Shown piece by piece: positions 8,596 to 31,663 of a stretch of DNA of 48,041 nt. Position 1 is the first letter of the stretch. Each line of letters starts with the position of its first letter. The notes below the pieces were generated by a model, which saw nothing but the letters and a program-made list of their open reading frames with translations, ran no database searches and had not been told where the DNA came from. This DNA is from a virus (Duplodnaviria > Heunggongvirae > Uroviricota > Caudoviricetes). The stretch lies in the IMG/VR virus record IMGVR_UViG_2721755720_000004. One strand, 5' to 3'. A program made the translations under genes and the position numbers.

Positions 8596-9759
8596 TCAGA
8601 ACTGATAAGTCATCCCAACAGCAACGATATTATCTGTCGCAATACCGGCTTTCTGGGTAAATTCGCTTTCATCAATCAGGTTAATTTTATAATCAACATA
8701 AGTGGACATATTTTTGTTAAAGTAATAAGTCGCACCGACATCAATATATTTAACCAGATCCTGGTCGCCATGGTTCACACCACCAACCATAACATCCTGT
8801 CCGCGGGACTGCAGATAAGCCAGAGATGGACGCAGGCCAAAATCGAACTGATACTGAGCAACCATTTCAAGGTTTTGTGCTTTATCCGCAACCCCGGTAT
8901 CACCAAAAGTGGTCATATTCTGGGTTTCGGAATAAATTGCAGCCAGATACAGATTGTTTGCATCATATTTAAGGCCAGTCCCCCACATCTCAGCATACTT
9001 ACCTTTTGCAACGCTGCCGGAATCAACGGACACTTCTTTTTCCGTCACATCCCCCGTTAAAGGATCTTTGACTTCAATAGTTTTGCTACCATTCAGGCCA
9101 TTAACCTGCTTACCTGTACGATCTGACTTAGTATACGCTGCCACAAAACCAAAACCATCAAACTCATAGCTGGCAGAGAAACCATATCCATCACCATTAG
9201 ACTTCTGGAGGTCATCTCGCTCATTTTTTCCCTGATACTGGGCTGCAAAGTTAAGACCATCCACCAGTCCGAAGAAATCTGTATTGCGGTAAGTCAGCAC
9301 TCCGGAAGTACGAGCAGTCATGAAGTTATCAGTCTGCGTCCAGCCATCGCCACCAAATTCTGGCAGAACGTCTGTATACGAACCGACATCATAAGCGATA
9401 CCATAATTACGCCCGTAATCAATGCTACCTAAATCAGCGAATTTCAAACCGGCAAATGCCAGACGGGTTTTATTGCCTGCCGTCCCTTCAGACTCGGCCT
9501 TATTACCTGAAAACTGATATTCCCAGTGACCAAAACCTGTCAGTTGATCATTGATCTGAGTCTCACCTTTAAAACCAAGACGTGCATAGGTCTTATCGCC
9601 ATCATCACCTTTATCGTCTGAGAAGTAATGGAGAGCAGTTACACGACCATAAAGATCCAGCTTATTACCATCTTTATTATAAACTTCTGCTGCCTGAGCC
9701 CCCGCAGCAAACATCACTGCCACTGCAACAGCAGAAAGTGCCACTGTCATTTTTTTCAT
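8596..9759 (-). CDS. general-diffusion porin (OmpC/NmpC/Lc-like) carried as cargo inside the tail gene cluster
   Basis: 387 aa with Sec signal peptide [23 protein letters not shown]; then [17 protein letters not shown]...HYFSD and C-terminal ...YVDYKINL...GMTYQF ending in Phe, hallmarks of enterobacterial 16-strand porins; AT-rich flanks. Confidence 0.9.
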
Positions 9760-20853: not shown

Positions 20854-21056
20854 AACCTCACTCCCAGCGGACGACGGCGACACCGGGTTGTCCCCAGTAC
20901 CGACTCCGCATCATTAATCGCCCGGTTAAGCTCATCCAGAGAAGCCGCCGTATATTCAATTCTGCGACCATCTTTCTGGACAGACACCACCCGTTTACCG
21001 GTTAATAAATCAAGGCGCGCCTGACGCAGCGCCTGCAGTTCAGCGACTGTAACCAT
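20850..21056 (-). CDS. W: head completion protein W
   Basis: 68 aa, ...LLTGKRVVSVQKDGRRIEYTAASL... resembles lambda W; lies between A and B. Confidence 0.85.
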   Translation of the reverse strand: MVTVAELQALRQARLDLLTGKRVVSVQKDGRRIEYTAASLDELNRAINDAESVLGTTRCRRRPLGVRL

Positions 21057-22968
21057 TCACTCCTCCGGACAGCTTCGCTGCCAGTTCTTTAAGGGTTGGC
21101 CGGGTCGTCTCTTCTTCCCGGGATTTTGCCAGTACAGCCAGATCAAGCTGCCAGCGTTGCACGGACACACGTAATGCCGCGTAGGCATACACCAGGCAGT
21201 CCAGCGCTTCGTTACGCCGCTTTTTGTTATCCCACAGCAGACGCATCTTTCCTTTTTCCCACTTCTCCACAAGCTCCTCCGCGACCAGTTGCTGCGCCTC
21301 TGTCTGCGAAAAAATCTCCGGATCATCAGGAAAACGGATGGCATATGACGTGGCTTCATCCGCAGGCATGGGATCGGCTTTCATACGGGCATAGAGAATT
21401 TCTTTTGCGGTGTCCGTCCCCACTTCACACAGATACACGCCCCGCTGATTGCGGGTTTTTGGCATGGTGATCACCGGCTTGCCATAGACAGATGCGCCTT
21501 TTACCGGCAGCACCCGGAAAACACCGTGTTTTTTTGACCTCTGATAAACGATTTCGCCATCGATCCCCCCGGTGTCCCAGCAGACACGGGAAATGGTTAT
21601 TTCGGTACCGTCTGCATGGCGGTATTTTTTGTTGATCGCCGCATCCACACGTAACAGCGTCTCTTCCTCATCAGGACGCCCCATAATGATGATTTTATCC
21701 ACCAGAAAGGCTTCCTCTCCCGGAGCCCATCCCCAGACATACATCTCAAAACGGTTTCGCTGCGAGTCAATACCCGCCGTCAGATAAACCACCCGGGCAG
21801 GCACCGCCGCCGTGTAATGAACAACCTTATCCATCAGTACCTGGTGATCGAGTTTTTCGCCCACGGCCTCTTCCCAGGTCTCGCCCAGCGTGGTGTTCAC
21901 AAAGGTTTTCAGGCCGTTGGGATCTTTCAGTGCATCCAGCCAGTCATAGACAATCTGTACCCAGGTGGTGAACGGACTGTACGCCGTCCAGATATGGAAC
22001 GTGATGGAGCGCGGCGGCGGAATTTCATTACCCGCAGCGCTGAAAAACGTCAGACCGTCACGGGTCCACATGCCCGTGTTTTCACAGATCCACCGCCCGT
22101 TGCTCTGGTCAAGTTCAGACTGACGGATCACGCAACCATTATGTTCACAGAGGTAGAAAACACTTTCGGGTCTGTCCTTCTCCCATTTAAGGCCAAAAGG
22201 CGTGGACTCATCGCCAAATTTCAGATACTGCTCCTCCCCACAGTGCGGGCAGGGCACATAAAAACGCATGAAATGTGCCGACTCGTTAGCGGCTTTTTCG
22301 ATCTGGCAGGTGCCTTTGATTTTAGGCGTCGAGCCGCGAATGGATTTTGGCCATACAGAGCCCTCAATACGTTTATCCCCCAGCAGGGTTGGCGAACCCT
22401 CTTTTTCGACATCCGGCTCGAACGAGGAAAGCTCGTCATAACAGACCACATCCACGGATTTTTCACGGTAGTTTTTGGCGGCAGCACCACCCAGGCACCA
22501 GAAGCCCACACCCGATGAAAAGCGTTTCAGCGTGAGAGTATTATCACGATGTTTACGACCCAGCCATGGGGAAAGGTCTTTCAGGCATGGCACGTCCCGA
22601 ATCGTCGCCTCCACATGAGACTTCATAAAATCTTCAGCGGCAGAATCCGTAGGCTGAAAAAGCAGACTGTTTCGGGATTTATGCTCAATAAAATACCCGA
22701 TCACCCCCAGCAACATCTTTGTATAGCCAACACGGGCAGATTTAATCAGATTAACAGTGCGGCTCTGATCATTCCCCATACTGTTCATGATGGCGATCTG
22801 GAATGGCAGCGTTTTCCATTCGCCGTCACCGTATGAGGATTCTTTAGGCAGATAATAATTTTGATCAGCCCATTCAACTGCCGTCATCGGTACAACCCTG
22901 ACCAGAGGCTGCAGCGCAACCGAAACGGCAGCCATCATATTATTCAGTTGTTGCTCTGATATATTCAT
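21040..22968 (-). CDS. A: terminase large subunit A
   Basis: Start set at MNISEQQ; TAVEWAD, GGAAAKNYREKSVDV and TGGIDGEIVYQRSKKHG regions match lambda gpA. Confidence 0.95.
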   Translation of the reverse strand: MNISEQQLNNMMAAVSVALQPLVRVVPMTAVEWADQNYYLPKESSYGDGEWKTLPFQIAIMNSMGNDQSRTVNLIKSARVGYTKMLLGVIGYFIEHKSRNSLLFQPTDSAAEDFMKSHVEATIRDVPCLKDLSPWLGRKHRDNTLTLKRFSSGVGFWCLGGAAAKNYREKSVDVVCYDELSSFEPDVEKEGSPTLLGDKRIEGSVWPKSIRGSTPKIKGTCQIEKAANESAHFMRFYVPCPHCGEEQYLKFGDESTPFGLKWEKDRPESVFYLCEHNGCVIRQSELDQSNGRWICENTGMWTRDGLTFFSAAGNEIPPPRSITFHIWTAYSPFTTWVQIVYDWLDALKDPNGLKTFVNTTLGETWEEAVGEKLDHQVLMDKVVHYTAAVPARVVYLTAGIDSQRNRFEMYVWGWAPGEEAFLVDKIIIMGRPDEEETLLRVDAAINKKYRHADGTEITISRVCWDTGGIDGEIVYQRSKKHGVFRVLPVKGASVYGKPVITMPKTRNQRGVYLCEVGTDTAKEILYARMKADPMPADEATSYAIRFPDDPEIFSQTEAQQLVAEELVEKWEKGKMRLLWDNKKRRNEALDCLVYAYAALRVSVQRWQLDLAVLAKSREEETTRPTLKELAAKLSGGVNGYSR

Positions 22969-23449
22969 CAAGTAAATCCGGTAATTTATCCCCTGCCCGC
23001 GCACACTGATTTGCGCCCTTTGCAATAAGGGTTTTCAGATGTTCAATATGACGTGGCGTTAAATCCGGGAACTGTCGCTGCATGGATAAAGGGATGGAAT
23101 CAAGCGTACTGGATAACGCCATTGCCAGCTTACTGAGGGCAAAAATACAGAATCCGGTGTCGATCAGTTTTCCTTTTGACACCTCATTTTTTAGCTGTTG
23201 TGTAACGGCCTGTTCTGCTGTCAGTTCCCATCTGGCAATAAGCAATTTCTCTTCATAATCTTCTTCCGGCTCACCATCAGACACATCGTTTTTACTTCTC
23301 CTCAGATACGATATGTAAAAATCACGCCAGGCATCCAGATCCAGTTGCCCTCGCTTATTCGAGACCGGAGCACCCGGTAATTTCTGCAATCTGCGAAGCT
23401 GGCGATCGGTCAGACTTAAATGCCTGGCAACTTCAGTCTGCGTAGCCAC
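22940..23449 (-). CDS. Nu1: terminase small subunit Nu1-like
   Basis: 169 aa with N-terminal helix-turn-helix (TQTEVARHLSLTDRQLRRL); first gene downstream of cosN; overlaps the start of A. Confidence 0.8.
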   Translation of the reverse strand: MATQTEVARHLSLTDRQLRRLQKLPGAPVSNKRGQLDLDAWRDFYISYLRRSKNDVSDGEPEEDYEEKLLIARWELTAEQAVTQQLKNEVSKGKLIDTGFCIFALSKLAMALSSTLDSIPLSMQRQFPDLTPRHIEHLKTLIAKGANQCARAGDKLPDLLDEYIRATTE

Positions 23450-23632
23450 TCCTCACCTCGCAAAAACTCTCACCTCACAATCACGACAAAACCGGTCATG
23501 TCCGGTTCACATGCTCATTTTTTGCGCATGTCCGGTTCACAGAAGACCTGTTTTTATATTTTTCATATAGTTAACTTGCAGAGAAACCGGACATGGATCC
23601 CGGAAAATTTTCATAAATAGTGAAAACGCGCG

Positions 23633-23644
23633 AGGTCGCCGCCC
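23633..23644 (-). other. cosN cohesive-end site (lambda type)
   Basis: Plus strand AGGTCGCCGCCC is the reverse complement of GGGCGGCGACCT, the lambda 12-nt cohesive end; sits about 185 bp upstream of Nu1. Confidence 0.8.
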
Positions 23645-23843
23645 CGTAGCCTGCCGGATCGCCGGAAAGGACCCACAAAATGATAATAATTATCATCTAC
23701 ATGTCACAACGTGCATCTACGCCATCAAACCACGTCAAATAATCAATTATGACGCAGGTATCGTATTAATTGATCTGCATCAACTTAACGTAAAAACAAC
23801 TTCAGACAATACAAATCAACGACACTGAATACGGGGCAACCTC

Positions 23844-24038
23844 ATGTCAACTAAGAATAGAACCCGCAGAACAACAACCCGCAACATCCGCTTTCCTAAC
23901 CAAATGATTGAACAAATCAACATCGCTCTTGATCAAAAAGGGTCCGGGAATTTCTCAGCCTGGGTCATTGAAGCCTGCCGTCGGAGACTAACGTCAGAAA
24001 AGAGAGCATATACATCAATCCAAAGTGATGATGAATGA
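23844..24038 (+). CDS. small basic protein, possible ribbon-helix-helix DNA-binding protein
   Basis: 64 aa, Arg/Thr-rich N-terminus then NIRFPNQMIEQINIALDQKGSGNFSAWVIEACRRRL; first ORF of the AT-rich cassette between cos and Rz. Confidence 0.35.
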   Translation: MSTKNRTRRTTTRNIRFPNQMIEQINIALDQKGSGNFSAWVIEACRRRLTSEKRAYTSIQSDDE

Positions 24039-24403
24039 ACATCCCGGTTTCTTCCACCATCGCACCGGAAAAGCGACTATGAGGGTAACCCTGCGTCTGT
24101 CAGCACAGTAAAACCCGGTATGCATCGCTTTTGATTATCTCCGCACACTCGTGCAGAGGAGTATCCCGTAATGGCTGCGGTCTCTGTTAATGCGGGAACA
24201 CGGCGACAATACAGCGCCAGTTATGGGTATGAAAATCCTCACCAGCGCAAAGCTATATCAACCTGTAGTGATGCAAAATTACCCGTAGCAAAAGGTATCT
24301 CCGCACATATGCAAGAACACAGCCTTAAAAACTCAGATGAAATAATGATTTGTTAAGATTTATATTATATGTTCGACATGGTACAACACTTAAGGGATGA
24401 AAT

Positions 24404-24946
24404 ATGAACAGATACTCTAAACTTCAAATTCAATTACATTGGCTGACTCTCGTATTAATAGCTATAGCCTGTGCTGCAATGGAACTTCGAGGTTTGTTTC
24501 CTAAAGGGTCTTCCTCCTATTTGCTTATGAGAGAAACACATTACAATGCTGGTATATTTATTCTTCTACTGATGATAATAAGAGTAATTATCAATAATAA
24601 ATATATAACACCAGCTATTACGCCGCCCCCACCTGCATGGCAAATGATATCAGCCAAATTCATGCAAACCCTGTTATACATATCTTTTTTGGTGTTACCA
24701 GTATCAGGACTTGCAATCATGGTTTTTGGAGGTAAAGCATGGAGCCTTCTGGGGATTGATATTCCCACTTTCGCTAACACCGACGGAGAAGTAAAATCCG
24801 TAGCCAAAACTATTCATGAATCACTTGCAAATATTGGTTATTTATTAATCACACTCCATGCTGGCGCTGCATTAATTCATCATTATATTCAGAAGGACAA
24901 TACACTTGTCAGAATGCTCCCTGAGCACCAGCATGATAAAAAGTGA
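24404..24946 (+). CDS. cytochrome b561 family protein (CybB-like di-haem membrane protein)
   Basis: 180 aa; MNRYSKLQIQLHWLTLVLIA...MELRG and C-terminal HAGAALIHHYIQKDNTLVRMLP closely resemble E. coli CybB; four predicted transmembrane helices with conserved His; AT-rich. Confidence 0.85.
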   Translation: MNRYSKLQIQLHWLTLVLIAIACAAMELRGLFPKGSSSYLLMRETHYNAGIFILLLMIIRVIINNKYITPAITPPPPAWQMISAKFMQTLLYISFLVLPVSGLAIMVFGGKAWSLLGIDIPTFANTDGEVKSVAKTIHESLANIGYLLITLHAGAALIHHYIQKDNTLVRMLPEHQHDKK

Positions 24947-25020
24947 GGAAGAGAAGAATCATCACTCTGACAGGTATTTTATAATACCTGTCACACTCTG
25001 TACCTCAGTTTCAGTGACTA

Positions 25021-25527
25021 TTAATACGTCTCTGTCAGATAACTTGAATCTCTGACTGAATTATAAATGCGTTCACATGTCAATCCAGCGCGGTAATTTT
25101 CGTCAGCGCGTTTAGCATAATATCCAGCTTCTTCTGCAAGGCTTCCGAGCATGTCGGCGAGCATTGCGACGTTGCTTTCGATTGTTTTGCTTCTGACGGT
25201 AGCGGCAATATTTGCGGTATGCTCTGCCGCTTCCAGTCTGACGGTAAGCTTTGTTGCTTTTTCCCGCAACTGACTAACAGTGGCAGATAAACCAGCAGCA
25301 GTAGCATTGGCTTTGACAGCTTTCTCTTGTGCATCTTTGACAGCCTCATCACGGGCAACAATACGCCCCTGTTCAATCATCCTGACAGCAATCTGCGTAT
25401 TAACAATCTGCGACGACTCTTCACTGTCCCGCTCAGCCCATTTCGTTTGCCATTCTCTTTCACACCAGACATTTCCAGCAATAAATGAGCCAATTGACAG
25501 CAATACAATGGCCACAAGCTTAATCAA
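25021..25527 (-). CDS. Rz: i-spanin (Rz-like)
   Basis: 168 aa; N-terminal transmembrane helix then coiled-coil periplasmic domain; start overlaps the lysozyme stop. Confidence 0.7.
   Translation of the reverse strand: MIKLVAIVLLSIGSFIAGNVWCEREWQTKWAERDSEESSQIVNTQIAVRMIEQGRIVARDEAVKDAQEKAVKANATAAGLSATVSQLREKATKLTVRLEAAEHTANIAATVRSKTIESNVAMLADMLGSLAEEAGYYAKRADENYRAGLTCERIYNSVRDSSYLTETY
25080..25334 (-). CDS. Rz1: o-spanin (Rz1-like lipoprotein) embedded in the +1 frame of Rz
   Basis: Embedded ORF with signal peptide MHKRKLSKPMLLLLVYLPLLVSC (lipobox LVSC); start choice is tentative. Confidence 0.55.
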   Translation of the reverse strand: MHKRKLSKPMLLLLVYLPLLVSCGKKQQSLPSDWKRQSIPQILPLPSEAKQSKATSQCSPTCSEALQKKLDIMLNALTKITALD

Positions 25528-26057
25528 TTATCTATCCCCCAGCACGTCAGCATGCTTTCCTGGTCACGCCGTGATACCTGACCAGAGCAGTTGTTTGAGC
25601 GAATACGGCAGTCTTTGCCACCATCCTTAATCCACCAGCGAATCGCCTCGCAGGCACCTTTACGATCACCGGCATTAAGCCGCTTATAAAACGTCGACGG
25701 GAAACACTTACCTGGGCCAATGTTGTACGGACAGAACGACGCGATACCTGCTTTCTGCGGTTCAGTCAGCGGTACCTGGATATTTTCCTCCACCCACGCC
25801 AGCGCCTTATTGCGCTCGATGGCGTTCACCTGCTCGCATTTTGTCTTCGTCAGTTTCATGCCAGGAACGACAGGCTTACCGTCCACCATTGTGGCACCAC
25901 GGCAGATGGTCCAGATACCCGTACCATCACGGTATGCTGTTATGTGGTTGCCTTCCTTTTCATCCAGAAACTGGTCGAGAATTTCAGGCGCAGAAGCCCC
26001 TGCGGCAATCAGCGCCAGAACGGCAGCCGACAGGCCGTATCTGATTTTTGTGTTCAT
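25524..26057 (-). CDS. R: endolysin, T4/R21-type lysozyme with N-terminal signal-arrest-release (SAR) segment
   Basis: 177 aa; weakly hydrophobic Gly/Ala-rich N-terminus (GLSAAVLALIAAGASA) then E-8aa-D-5aa-T catalytic spacing (EGNHITAYRDGTGIWT); resembles DLP12 RrrD / phage 21 R. Confidence 0.9.
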   Translation of the reverse strand: MNTKIRYGLSAAVLALIAAGASAPEILDQFLDEKEGNHITAYRDGTGIWTICRGATMVDGKPVVPGMKLTKTKCEQVNAIERNKALAWVEENIQVPLTEPQKAGIASFCPYNIGPGKCFPSTFYKRLNAGDRKGACEAIRWWIKDGGKDCRIRSNNCSGQVSRRDQESMLTCWGIDN

Positions 26058-26744: not shown

Positions 26745-26960
26745 CTACTCTCCCCGCGCCGCCTTACGACGGTCCTCTTTAATCTTGAAGTACAGGTTCG
26801 TCAGGTACGTTAACAGACCAAACAGCAGACTCCCCAGCACGCCTATTGCCGCCCACTGAGACGGGGATACCCTGTCCAGCAACTGCAGGAACCAGTATCC
26901 CGTCCCCACCGCAGACGTGGTGTATGACACACCTGTTGTGATTTTTTCCATCTGGTACAT
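26745..26960 (-). CDS. S: holin, S21-type pinholin
   Basis: 71 aa; ...[51 protein letters not shown] closely resembles the phage 21 / DLP12 pinholin. Confidence 0.85.
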
Positions 26961-29642: not shown

Positions 29643-29814
29643 TGCTCCTCCCGGACGGGATAATGTGTTAACTAAGATGAGAGAGCAGGTGACAGCCCCG
29701 GCCGCATGAAAGTTCTGAGAGGGAAGTGCTGCCTGCTGCTCCATTGCACAGATTAATTACTGTCTGGTAGTATTCAGTGGCTGATTAGAATACTTCACAT
29801 TTTGTTATTTTGTG

Positions 29815-29846
29815 CAGCCCGTTACCATTCGTAGCGGGCTTTTTTT
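29815..29846 (+). terminator. intrinsic terminator (plus strand)
   Basis: Hairpin GCCCG...CGGGC followed by TTTTTTT (gcccgttaccattcgtagcgggcttttttt). Confidence 0.5.
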
Positions 29847-29849
29847 GTC

Positions 29850-29876
29850 CATAAAAAAGCCCCTCCGGAGAGGGGC
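29850..29876 (-). terminator. intrinsic terminator (minus strand) about 30 nt downstream of repeat unit 1
   Basis: Minus strand GCCCCTCTCCGGAGGGGC then TTTTTT; 7-bp GC-rich stem with 4-nt loop. Confidence 0.6.
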
Positions 29877-29907
29877 ATACTAGCTATATATCCATTTATC
29901 ATTGGCT

Positions 29908-30037
29908 GCGTGGTGCCGGGTGCCTCCCGGTGAGCTCAGTCTGGTGTCACTGAGCCCGCACATTCTCGATCCAAGTTATCGTCGGAGATAATACCTGATA
30001 CACCAGACGCCCCTCCGCACAGGGGGATTCACCACGC
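29908..30037 (-). ncRNA. candidate structured small RNA, repeat unit 1 of 4
   Basis: 130 nt; terminal 8 bp GCGTGGTG/CACCACGC pair; conserved GCCGGGTGCCTCCCGGTG and AGGGGGATTC motifs; variable centre with its own 9-bp stem (GTCTGGTGT/ACACCAGAC). Strand inferred from flanking terminator and one G-U wobble in unit 3. Confidence 0.45.
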
Positions 30038-30264
30038 GCAGAGAAGGATACTGAACACTATTTTCTCCAGGCAATATGCAATAACATGAAGTGTGAGATG
30101 ACTTACAATTATAAAAAACAGCCTACAGAATACTCCTAAATAAAGCCATATCAAAATGAGTAACACAAAAAGGAACCAGGCAAAAATTTACGAGCAGGTA
30201 TTATCCAGCAACAGTTCAGACGCCATAACTTATTGCCGATAGCTACCATCAATAATTTCTTTCA

Positions 30265-30289
30265 TAAAAAAGCCCCTCTGAAGAGGGGC
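30265..30289 (-). terminator. intrinsic terminator (minus strand) about 30 nt downstream of repeat unit 2
   Basis: Minus strand GCCCCTCTTCAGAGGGGC then TTTTTT. Confidence 0.6.
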
Positions 30290-30316
30290 TGACATACGCA
30301 TTTGCTTTCATCATCA

Positions 30317-30439
30317 ATATGGCGCCGGGTGCCTCCCGGTGCTCCATAACTGATTAATATGGAACGCGGTTTCATTCAGTTGCATTCATGAATAACACTC
30401 TAATCAGTCCGCCCCGCCGCTTAGGGGGATTCGCCATAT
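30317..30439 (-). ncRNA. candidate structured small RNA, repeat unit 2 of 4
   Basis: 123 nt; terminal stem ATATGGCG/CGCCATAT, which covaries with the other units; same conserved 5' and 3' motifs. Confidence 0.45.
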
Positions 30440-30574
30440 AAATTGAAAGTACTGAACACATCTGTCACAAACAATATGCAATTGTATGAATTGTGAGATT
30501 ATTATCAATAACACAAAATTACAGCTCTAGTACATAAACAGCAGATTAAACAAGAACAACAAAAGTATTGAATT

Positions 30575-30698
30575 GCACGGTGCCGGGTGCCTCCCGGTGA
30601 ATTCTGCAATGACCAGACAGAATCCGCAACTTGCTACTAACGCTAATGCGACCAAGCCTCAGTCATTATGCCCCTCCGCACAGGGGGATTCACCATGC
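30575..30698 (-). ncRNA. candidate structured small RNA, repeat unit 3 of 4
   Basis: 124 nt; terminal stem GCACGGTG/CACCATGC (one C-A on the plus strand, G-U on the minus strand); conserved motifs present; no canonical terminator nearby. Confidence 0.35.
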
Positions 30699-30826
30699 GC
30701 TAAAAAAATACAAAACGTCACGTCACTCTGACAATACGAAGCACCATAAAATGTGAGTTATTTATCAATTCTTAATTCTGGTTACAGGAATATTCCGAAT
30801 CAAATCTTTAAAAAAAGAAATTCAAA

Positions 30827-30931
30827 TGCATGGTGCCGGGTGCCTCCCGGTGAACAGACCGTCCGTGATACCAGTCGGCAACACAGGAAATTAATGGTAT
30901 CACCCCACCGCACAGGGGGATTCACCATGCA
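30827..30931 (-). ncRNA. candidate structured small RNA, repeat unit 4 of 4
   Basis: 105 nt; 9-bp terminal stem TGCATGGTG/CACCATGCA; internal 9-bp stem GTGATACCA/TGGTATCAC; conserved motifs present. Confidence 0.35.
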
Positions 30932-31319
30932 GGCGTTTTCTTAGCAAACTAACTGCGCGCCCGGCAACTCCCAACCACATAAAACGTGGAGTTTGTAGCA
31001 TTTATGCACATAACTCACAGGGGTTATCTTAAAAAAAGCTGACCATGCTTCCCCGGCAACGCAATAACTTTATTCCCTGAAGTGGCATCCCCCGTATTGT
31101 CGGCAGGCTCAAAAAGGAGCCAGTCATCTGAGGATGACTGGAAAAAGGAAAGATAAAAAATTATTCATCATACAACCTTCGTTGCAGGGGAGAATCCTGC
31201 GGTGCAGCAACATACAAAAACATAAGCCAACTAACAATATGCAGGCATAGCATTTTCGGATTTTGTTATATGGCACGGTAACTGAATGCTTACCTGATAT
31301 ACAGTCCGGTATAAAGTTG

Positions 31320-31342
31320 CAAAAAACCGCCAGTTAAGGCGG
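31320..31342 (-). terminator. putative intrinsic terminator (minus strand) downstream of the tRNA pair
   Basis: Minus strand GCCGCCTTAACTGGCGG then TTTTTTG. Confidence 0.45.
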
Positions 31343-31585
31343 CATTCAAACAGACAACAGGATTTTTTCGTAATTTTAACAACTTCGGGGTGGCGCATCG
31401 TCAGCCCCTGTCAGGAAGTACCAGAACTCCCTCCAACAATATCCCCCCATTCAGCGTTATCAAACACAGCACAGAAACTATCAATGTTTGCTGTTACAGT
31501 TAGGGAAAAAACGATAAATACGCCACAGGCTCTTTTTGCTGTGAAGTAAAAACTGATCTGAAAGACTGCTCATCATTTATTTTGC

Positions 31586-31663
31586 TGGACCGTCACCGGG
31601 GACTCGAACCCCGCATTTTCAACATAAAAAGGTTGATGCTCTTTCCTGATGAGCTAGTGACGG
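31586..31663 (-). tRNA. tRNA-like gene with an 8-nt anticodon loop (identity undetermined)
   Basis: Hand fold: acceptor CCGTCAC/GTGACGG (7 bp), U8-A9, D-stem GCTC/GAGC, anticodon stem TCAAC/GTTGA closing loop CTTTTTAT (8 nt), T-arm CGGGG-TTCGAGT-CCCCG, encoded CCA. Needs tRNAscan-SE / ARAGORN. Confidence 0.5.

Follow-up and report, generated by a model that had tools for sequence, protein, structure and literature searches.

We analysed the 48,041-nt stretch of DNA in IMG/VR virus record IMGVR_UViG_2721755720_000004 (hereafter the window; all positions are counted from its first nucleotide) and found that the segment between its cohesive-end site and its lysis genes contains cargo, that is, a moron, lying in the slot that holds bor in related lambdoid phages. 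The cargo gene (24404-24946, plus strand) encodes a 180-amino-acid (aa) four-helix di-haem cytochrome b561, which sequence comparison places in the YodB/STM1253 paralogue group; it is not an orthologue of CybB. The layout of the region upstream of the gene, which is shared with the chromosomal members of this group, suggests a promoter of the PmrA/BasR type. Our preferred reading, to which we assign a probability of roughly 0.6, is that of a moron that encodes a functional di-haem cytochrome and whose expression is wired to the host.

The map of the window is that of a lambdoid prophage, reversed in orientation with respect to the lambda map. In Escherichia coli strain CI5, the same element is a prophage of ~48.6 kb that is integrated between potB and potC and contains integrase, excisionase, replication, Q, lysis, head and tail genes; the window therefore represents essentially one intact prophage. 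The cohesive-end sequence AGGTCGCCGCCC, which we take to be the reverse complement of the lambda cohesive end, is matched exactly and only once in the window (cosN, 23633-23644; 0 matches expected by chance). This position fixes the cargo slot relative to cos, and window position ~23645 is where the phage 434 record ends in the alignment. Over the region 23600-24217, identity to lambda, to 434 and to numerous further lambdoid phages is ~95%. This backbone homology ends at 24217 and resumes within the gene for an Rz-type spanin (DUF2514; 25021-25527, minus strand; Pfam PF10721, 2e-44), which forms the right edge of the slot and where other phages align again from ~25043-25071. In the annotated genome of phage 434, the matching stretch contains cosQ and a DUF3950 gene and is followed by bor, which lies on the same strand and converges on Rz. 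The b561 gene is convergent with the Rz-R-S lysis genes and antisense to the late operon and, because phage 434 holds bor at the equivalent place, it takes both the slot and the orientation of bor. A preliminary description of this DNA had located a cassette at the bor position, between cosN and the lysis genes, with two plus-strand open reading frames (ORFs) of 64 and 180 aa; the comparison with phage 434 bears out this placement, and both ORFs are present, at 23844-24038 and 24404-24946.

The guanine+cytosine (GC) content is 0.33-0.39 over ~24200-25000, compared with 0.51 for the whole window, and that of the b561 gene itself is 37.8% (31.7% at third codon positions) against 51.1% for the window. 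The AT-richness that had been attributed to the entire cassette thus applies to the b561 segment, but not to the 64-aa gene, the GC content of which is 0.46-0.47. Two features associated with morons come together at this locus: the gene is inserted between conserved modules where the sister phage 434 has a different cargo, and its base composition is unlike that of the phage. Transcription that is independent of the phage operons would be possible, given a conserved block with a putative host-type promoter on the 5' side and a conserved hairpin, without a U tract, on the 3' side. With bor of lambda and 434, the b561 gene shares the slot between cos/YlcI and Rz and the orientation antisense to the late operon, and by analogy with bor it should be expressed in lysogens from its own promoter. 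The products differ: bor encodes an unrelated, Iss-like outer-membrane lipoprotein conferring serum resistance, whereas b561 is an inner-membrane redox protein.

The 64-aa gene (23844-24038, plus strand) was previously regarded as part of a two-gene cassette and as a possible regulator of b561. Its product is a YlcI/YnfO (DUF3950) protein (Pfam PF13132, 5.4e-20), which also matches NCBIfam NF041551 and phrog_949 and is 97% identical to its homologue in phage 434, where the gene adjoins bor. The gene lies within the ~95% identical lambdoid stretch and, as judged from these comparisons, is a conserved cos-adjacent backbone gene that is present whatever the cargo, not cargo itself. The b561 gene is found without YlcI both in Citrobacter prophages (e.g. 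L026, with the order Nu1-cos-b561) and in Escherichia prophage remnants, in which the homology to the window begins only at 24110. Since YlcI belongs to the backbone of 434 and lambda-like phages and b561 occurs alone, a two-gene cassette with YlcI as the regulator is unsupported. A search of solved structures with YlcI gave no meaningful match, and the label 'DNA-binding-like' found no support there. Between YlcI and b561, RefSeq annotates a 'hypothetical' 61-aa ORF (24171-24356, plus strand), which has no Pfam or PHROG family. The end of the lambda/434 homology (24217) falls inside this ORF, and its 3' end overlaps the yodB-type upstream block, so that it straddles the junction and is probably spurious.

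The cytochrome nature of the 180-aa protein, as proposed in the preliminary description, is well founded. Residues 3-173 align with positions 1-178 of the 179 positions of the Pfam profile PF01292 (Ni_hydr_CYTB; 88.5 bits, cutoff 30.1), and the protein matches the CybB structure 5OC0 over its full length (E 8.6e-42). An AlphaFold2 model built from 61 homologues has four long helices (predicted local distance difference test score 92.7), and its best match in the PDB is again 5OC0 (TM score 0.89-0.92; root mean square deviation 1.6 Å over 173 columns). The haem ligands H12, H46, H138 and H152, which are equivalent to H13, H45, H137 and H151 of CybB, are invariant in alignments of 13 and of 61 sequences; loss of these histidines, which would have spoken against the assignment, is therefore not seen. 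By sequence and model, the protein is an inner-membrane four-helix cytochrome b with two bis-histidine haems. Automated annotation already names the gene 'cytochrome b'.

The close resemblance to CybB that had been claimed goes too far. The protein is 61% identical to YodB, 55% to P0028, 43% to CybB and 29% to YceJ, and its score against the CybB equivalog model NF008566 (163.7 bits) is below the NCBIfam cutoff of 170 and close to that of YodB (164), compared with 379 for CybB itself. In a neighbour-joining tree, it is placed within the YodB group, on a long AT-rich branch. We equate P0028 with STM1253 on the basis of synteny. Its gene is preceded, at a distance of 148 bp, by a gene for a TRL lipoprotein and followed by a BNR-repeat gene in the opposite orientation, with an HSP20 gene and pagC in the vicinity, in agreement with the description of STY1867-1869 (PMC3344905). 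The window protein resembles YodB (b1974) and STM1253 (STY1868) in length, in its four haem histidines and in the AT-richness of its gene, and the upstream direct repeat, the 10-nt spacing, the TAnnnT hexamer and the ~30 nt to the ATG are also held in common. It differs from them in its phage location (yodB lies beside serU, and STM1253 beside the lipoprotein gene STM1254), in the degeneracy of the upstream half-site of the repeat, in having Gln in place of a near-invariant His at position 88, in its long branch and in a C-terminus that is four residues longer (EHQHDKK).

Mutagenesis of CybB identified as important the antenna residues R30, R35, R38, R108 and K134 and the quinone-site proton donors H87 and H158, the latter with D164; the H158-D164 pair weighs most for quinone binding, and the H87A variant retains about 50-80% of activity (PMC11869295). 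In the window protein, R30, R35 and K134 have their counterparts in R29, K34 and K135, whereas R38 and R108 are replaced by Ser37 and Gly109; two residues away from the position of the lost R108 is K111, and R43 is also nearby. The H158/D164 equivalents, H159 and D165, are invariant in the b561 alignments. The equivalent of H87 is Gln88 in the window protein and in 14 of the 14 Escherichia variants, although His is at least 90% conserved at this position among the 61 homologues and is kept by the nearest relatives (P0002 and P0004). Thus, the protein shares with CybB the four-helix di-haem fold, the haem ligands, the H158-D164 pair and three of the five antenna charges, and differs from it in overall identity, in the residues R38, R108 and H87, in a periplasmic loop that is two residues longer and in its promoter. 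Because H87A CybB keeps much of its activity, superoxide oxidase activity is possible despite Gln88, but would be an extrapolation from CybB.

The evidence for host-type control comes from the region upstream of the gene. Beyond the junction interval (24218-24307), in which the lambdoid backbone gives way to a block typical of the b561 family, ~95 nt on the 5' side of the ATG (24308-24403, plus strand) are conserved in all aligned prophage and Citrobacter chromosomal loci and in K-12 yodB (14 loci). The core TAA.G..TT.TTAAG and its position are invariant across these 14 loci. In the window, the core forms part of a direct repeat, AATAAT-GATTT-GTTAAG (24341-24357, plus strand; 6-5-6 arrangement), followed after 10 nt by the putative -10 hexamer TATGTT (24368-24373), the TAnnnT pattern of which does not vary within the family and which lies 30 nt ahead of the ATG, and by the Shine-Dalgarno sequence AAGGGA (24392-24397), 6 nt ahead of the ATG, in a GAGG/AAGG column that is conserved in the alignment. 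The register nnTAAG-N5-nTTAAG, 10 nt, TAnnnT, about 30 nt, ATG is kept in more than 40 loci, among them the window, 37 prophage loci, the Citrobacter chromosomal copies, K-12 yodB (repeat TATAAG-GAATT-TTTAAG) and STM1253 (TTTAAG-GTTCT-GTTAAG, then 10 nt and TACCCT). The PmrA box has the consensus YTTAAK-N5-YTTAAK, and arnB, pmrR and eptA are BasR/PmrA-dependent promoters of K-12. The same geometry is seen at arnB (CTTAAG-GTTAA-GTTAAT, 10 nt, -10 TAAAAT) and pmrR (CTTAAG-GTTCA-CTTAAT, 10 nt, -10 CATACT), and at eptA (CTTAAG-GTTGG-CTTAAT) the 10-nt spacing and the hexamer GAGCAT are our own reading.

Published data on the chromosomal relatives point in the same direction. STM1252/53 are listed among the known PmrA-regulated genes, and overexpression of PreA raised their expression 30-fold on arrays and 372-fold by quantitative reverse transcription PCR (PMC2653508). 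STM1253 is also described as PmrA-induced (PMC3344905, as cited there from Tamayo 2005), and in iron-adapted E. coli B, yodB co-varies with eptA, arnABC, pmrR, ais, ugd and basR (PMC13405929). From the conserved upstream layout together with this literature, we infer that the phage gene keeps a PmrA/BasR-type promoter, possibly responsive to QseB/PreA, and this control appears to be a better-supported lead than the oxidative-stress reading. As regards phenotype, this group of cytochromes came up in a macrophage screen of Salmonella Typhi, and a STY1867-68 mutant is reported to be defective in macrophage uptake and survival (PMC3344905).

Several observations weigh against our preferred reading. 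Taken alone, the site in the window has three mismatches to the PmrA box consensus and is not above chance, and about 11 repeats of such quality combined with TAnnnT are expected in a shuffled window; the support for a PmrA box therefore lies in the cross-locus conservation and the geometry. A generic sigma-70 scan found only a weak, overlapping 9/12 site at the putative -10, no better than in shuffled sequences. The upstream half-site is poorer in all phage and Citrobacter copies (AATAAT/AATAAG) than in K-12 and Salmonella. The nearest relative, P0002, on a metagenomic contig (82% identical; L130, 330-410), has a different upstream sequence, in which a GC-rich hairpin takes the place of the direct repeat and the breakpoint lies just 5' of the -10 region, indicating that the promoter is not common to all copies of b561. 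On the protein side, the replacement of the near-invariant His by Gln88, fixed in all Escherichia variants, belongs here, as do the rarity of the allele and one relaxed substitution ratio (both given below). In addition, the mouse virulence of an STM1253 mutant is described as unimpaired in a secondary account (PMC3344905, citing Tamayo 2005).

Escherichia remnants with this b561 allele also hold a gene for an LpxR lipid A deacylase (PF09982), and one of them (L146) additionally has a PmrD-like gene (PF11183). The positions are L146 6180-6515 and 6933-7958 and L138 7964-8543, with further examples in L139 and L141. These genes lie in the cargo slot between Q and S, where the window has tRNAs and a methyltransferase. 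Such a cargo theme fits the PmrA-type promoter proposed for b561.

Downstream of b561, the preliminary description had noted a hairpin, and a perfect 10-bp stem with a 4-nt loop (gacaggtatt-ttat-aatacctgtc) is indeed found at 24969-24992, between the convergent b561 and Rz genes; its 86-nt context folds with z = -3.2. The nearest relative (L130) keeps the stem by a compensatory A-T to G-C change (GACAGG..CCTGTC to GGCAGG..CCTGCC), and Citrobacter prophages have a different stem at the equivalent place. Since a stem-loop is kept in relatives, the hairpin belongs to the cargo. A canonical intrinsic terminator is not supported, because the hairpin has no U tract and was missed by the terminator scan. 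Lying between convergent genes, it probably marks the 3' end of the transcript or stabilizes it, and, by analogy with lambda, late transcription modified by Q should continue through the hairpin. A search of Rfam around cos, b561 and the hairpin returned no RNA family at E <= 1 except one chance miRNA match.

Of 5,426 complete E. coli genomes, 3 contain the window allele, two of them from mouse (M1 and M3) and one from human (CI5). The 90% protein cluster of this allele spans E. coli, E. ruysiae and cryptic Escherichia, with 18 variants in all, and 14 of the 14 Escherichia variants are intact at 180 aa. A tblastn search of 50,697 deposited phage records detected no phage-borne b561; the only match was host yodB DNA flanking SerU-LTIIb. 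In IMG/VR, however, 37 predicted prophage loci, mostly from Citrobacter, carry homologues with 59-71% identity, always 3' of and convergent with R/Rz, on backbones with either a lambda-like cos or an unrelated terminase/HNH module. These homologues are part of a cluster with 495 variants, which occur on more than 1,200 contigs with names that point nearly always to Citrobacter, and the window protein falls into an existing PHROGs family (phrog_31729, E 6e-39). For the spread across genera, the scan of species-representative genomes gives a lower bound.

Selection on the gene was assessed by the ratio of non-synonymous to synonymous substitution rates (dN/dS). This ratio is 0.09-0.23 within the Citrobacter prophage clade and 0.13 between the window allele and this clade; between the window allele and its nearest relative it is 0.43, a value that would also allow for relaxed constraint. 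Prophage remnants in E. ruysiae and other Escherichia have lost the terminase and structural genes and have a 1-nt indel in Rz, but retain b561 intact beside trpBA-yciGFE. The intact ORFs, the low dN/dS values, the retention in remnants and the recurrence together suggest a functional, host-beneficial gene rather than debris. The remnants L138-L147 (e.g. L138, 1-4543) adjoin trpBA-yciG-yciF-yciE, a site that differs from the potB/potC site of CI5. Copies of b561 in Citrobacter that appear to be chromosomal (65-68% identical) are located ~3 kb from a Lambda_Bor homologue (L046-L049, 3017-3316 and 6001-6540), and in L044 (7051-7293) and L049 a DinI gene is also adjacent to the b561 copy; this Citrobacter locus may be an old prophage remnant. 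As for the origin of the phage gene, we considered capture of yodB through aberrant excision beside serU, the site of E. coli yodB, and found it unsupported, because the bor slot is far from att and the nearest relatives of b561 are in Citrobacter and not E. coli yodB.

On this basis, the following picture can be drawn. The segment 24308-24992 would be an autonomous cargo unit, dispensable for phage growth, that fills the bor slot in an intact lambdoid prophage, and conservation shows that the gene was captured along with the native upstream region of its family. In the lysogen, its own promoter would drive transcription antisense to the late operon, and this promoter would be wired to the host PmrA/BasR (possibly QseB/PreA) response to envelope, Fe3+ and acid stress, as reported for STM1253, while the downstream hairpin may delimit or stabilize the 3' end of the transcript. 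By homology to CybB, the protein would carry electrons across the membrane, linking a haem exposed to the periplasm with a quinone site on the cytoplasmic side. A b561 gene that came with its own host-style promoter is a plausible fitness gene of the lysogen, and the most likely benefit, speculatively, would be redox protection of the envelope under PmrA-inducing conditions, through scavenging of periplasmic superoxide or through some other transfer of electrons in the periplasm that is coupled to the quinone pool. A more far-reaching version is tentative and in our view somewhat doubtful. It holds that cargo of Escherichia and Citrobacter phages is plugged into the host PmrA/BasR (QseB) regulon, with b561 having moved together with its PmrA-box promoter and with LpxR and PmrD-like companions in the remnants, and that the lysogen gains a periplasmic electron sink, for superoxide or Fe3+, which is inducible by Fe3+, acid and antimicrobial peptides.

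Other explanations for the gene must be weighed against this one. Prophages are known to carry periplasmic Cu,Zn superoxide dismutases (sodCI of Gifsy-2 and sodC of an E. coli O157 prophage), for which superoxide defence has been demonstrated. The preliminary description proposed an analogous reading, in which b561 would be a CybB-type superoxide:quinone oxidoreductase that guards the lysogen against exogenous superoxide in the manner of SodC, with the small upstream protein as its possible regulator. The two cases share the concept of prophage cargo that possibly handles periplasmic reactive oxygen, but differ in protein, phage-genome location and chemistry, and superoxide defence by b561 is conjectural. 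The fold and all haem ligands are common to b561 and CybB, three of the five antenna charges are kept (R29, K34 and K135) with K111 near the lost R108, and the H159/D165 pair is retained; moreover, the H87A variant of CybB is still about 50-80% active (PMC11869295). Nevertheless, an identity of only 43%, a score of 163.7 under the equivalog cutoff of 170 and the changes of R38 to Ser, R108 to Gly and H87 to Gln place the protein outside CybB; its closest paralogue, YodB, has no assigned activity, and YlcI belongs to the backbone and is absent beside most phage b561 copies. We therefore judge this explanation to be rather unlikely.

A passive passenger, i.e. host DNA that entered by illegitimate recombination and is silent (for example, repressed by H-NS) or decaying with no role, would account for the 37.8% GC content and the long branch, for the dN/dS of 0.43 against the nearest relative, for the loss of the near-invariant His, for the rarity in E. 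coli and for the degenerate upstream half-site. It does not fit with ORFs that are intact in all 14 variants from Escherichia and in hundreds from Citrobacter, with invariant haem ligands, with dN/dS values well under 1 against all other relatives, with persistence in remnants whose neighbouring phage genes are deleted or frameshifted, or with recurrence in the same slot on unrelated packaging modules, and we consider it improbable. Finally, an inner-membrane protein whose gene always adjoins the lysis cassette could serve the phage itself, by acting on lysis timing or the proton-motive force together with holin, endolysin and spanin, or by superinfection exclusion. However, the gene is on the strand opposite to the late operon and has the promoter region of the chromosomal yodB/STM1253 genes, the slot holds the unrelated bor in sister phages, and b561 is kept in remnants that are no longer able to lyse, all of which make such a role very improbable. 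A functional, host-wired cytochrome moron thus remains the explanation that we favour.

The surroundings of the slot are those of a lambdoid prophage, with genes for the large terminase (21040-23025, minus strand) and Nu1 (22940-23449, minus strand) on one side and for a lysozyme (25524-26057, minus strand) and a P21-type holin (26745-26960, minus strand) on the other, beyond Rz. The prophage has a second cargo gene, which encodes a 387-aa OmpC-like porin (8596-9759, minus strand; phrog_410, E 1.6e-193; annotated as ompC in CI5) and occupies an unusual slot inside the tail-gene cluster, where its neighbours in CI5 are the gene for minor tail protein L on one side and a 'phage tail protein' gene on the other. 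At 31586-31663 (minus strand), ARAGORN predicts a tRNA of 78 nt that has an enlarged anticodon loop with four anticodon bases (tttt) and no assigned amino acid, adjoining a tRNA with a CAT anticodon; RefSeq labels the pair in CI5 as tRNA-Lys and tRNA-Ile. The ~1.8 kb between a DUF6645/esterase-like gene and these tRNAs (29745-31585), corresponding to the slot that holds stx in Stx phages, contains no ORF longer than 63 aa and is unannotated in CI5. Two Hok/Gef-type toxin genes are also present in the prophage, one between gpJ and the tail-fibre gene (L148 12798-12908; 1286797-1286907 in the CI5 record) and the other (hokD) in the early region (L001 31773-31928).

Both the prokaryotic b561 family and bor-slot morons are already known as categories, and in the literature searched we found nothing relevant on cytochrome b561 carried by prophages. 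Within the same literature, YodB-group b561 genes as recurrent prophage cargo, prophage b561 genes with the promoter architecture of the chromosomal family and the fixation of a His-to-Gln change at a quinone-site residue in the Escherichia allele are undescribed. Overall, the b561 gene is an ordinary moron with an interesting regulatory lead. If the proposed promoter fails, it simply adds to the accessory genes for which the bor slot is well known. If it holds, the gene would be a clear case of a moron that has kept the two-component wiring of its chromosomal ancestor, so that a prophage gene would answer to Fe3+, mild acid and antimicrobial peptides, as lipid A remodelling does, and it would offer a practical approach to what the YodB/STM1253 cytochromes do. 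Ready-made comparisons exist in strains that have or lack the prophage copy and in the natural His-to-Gln variant, and, were the electron-sink reading true, the phage copies would provide a natural gain-of-function handle on YodB/STM1253 function.

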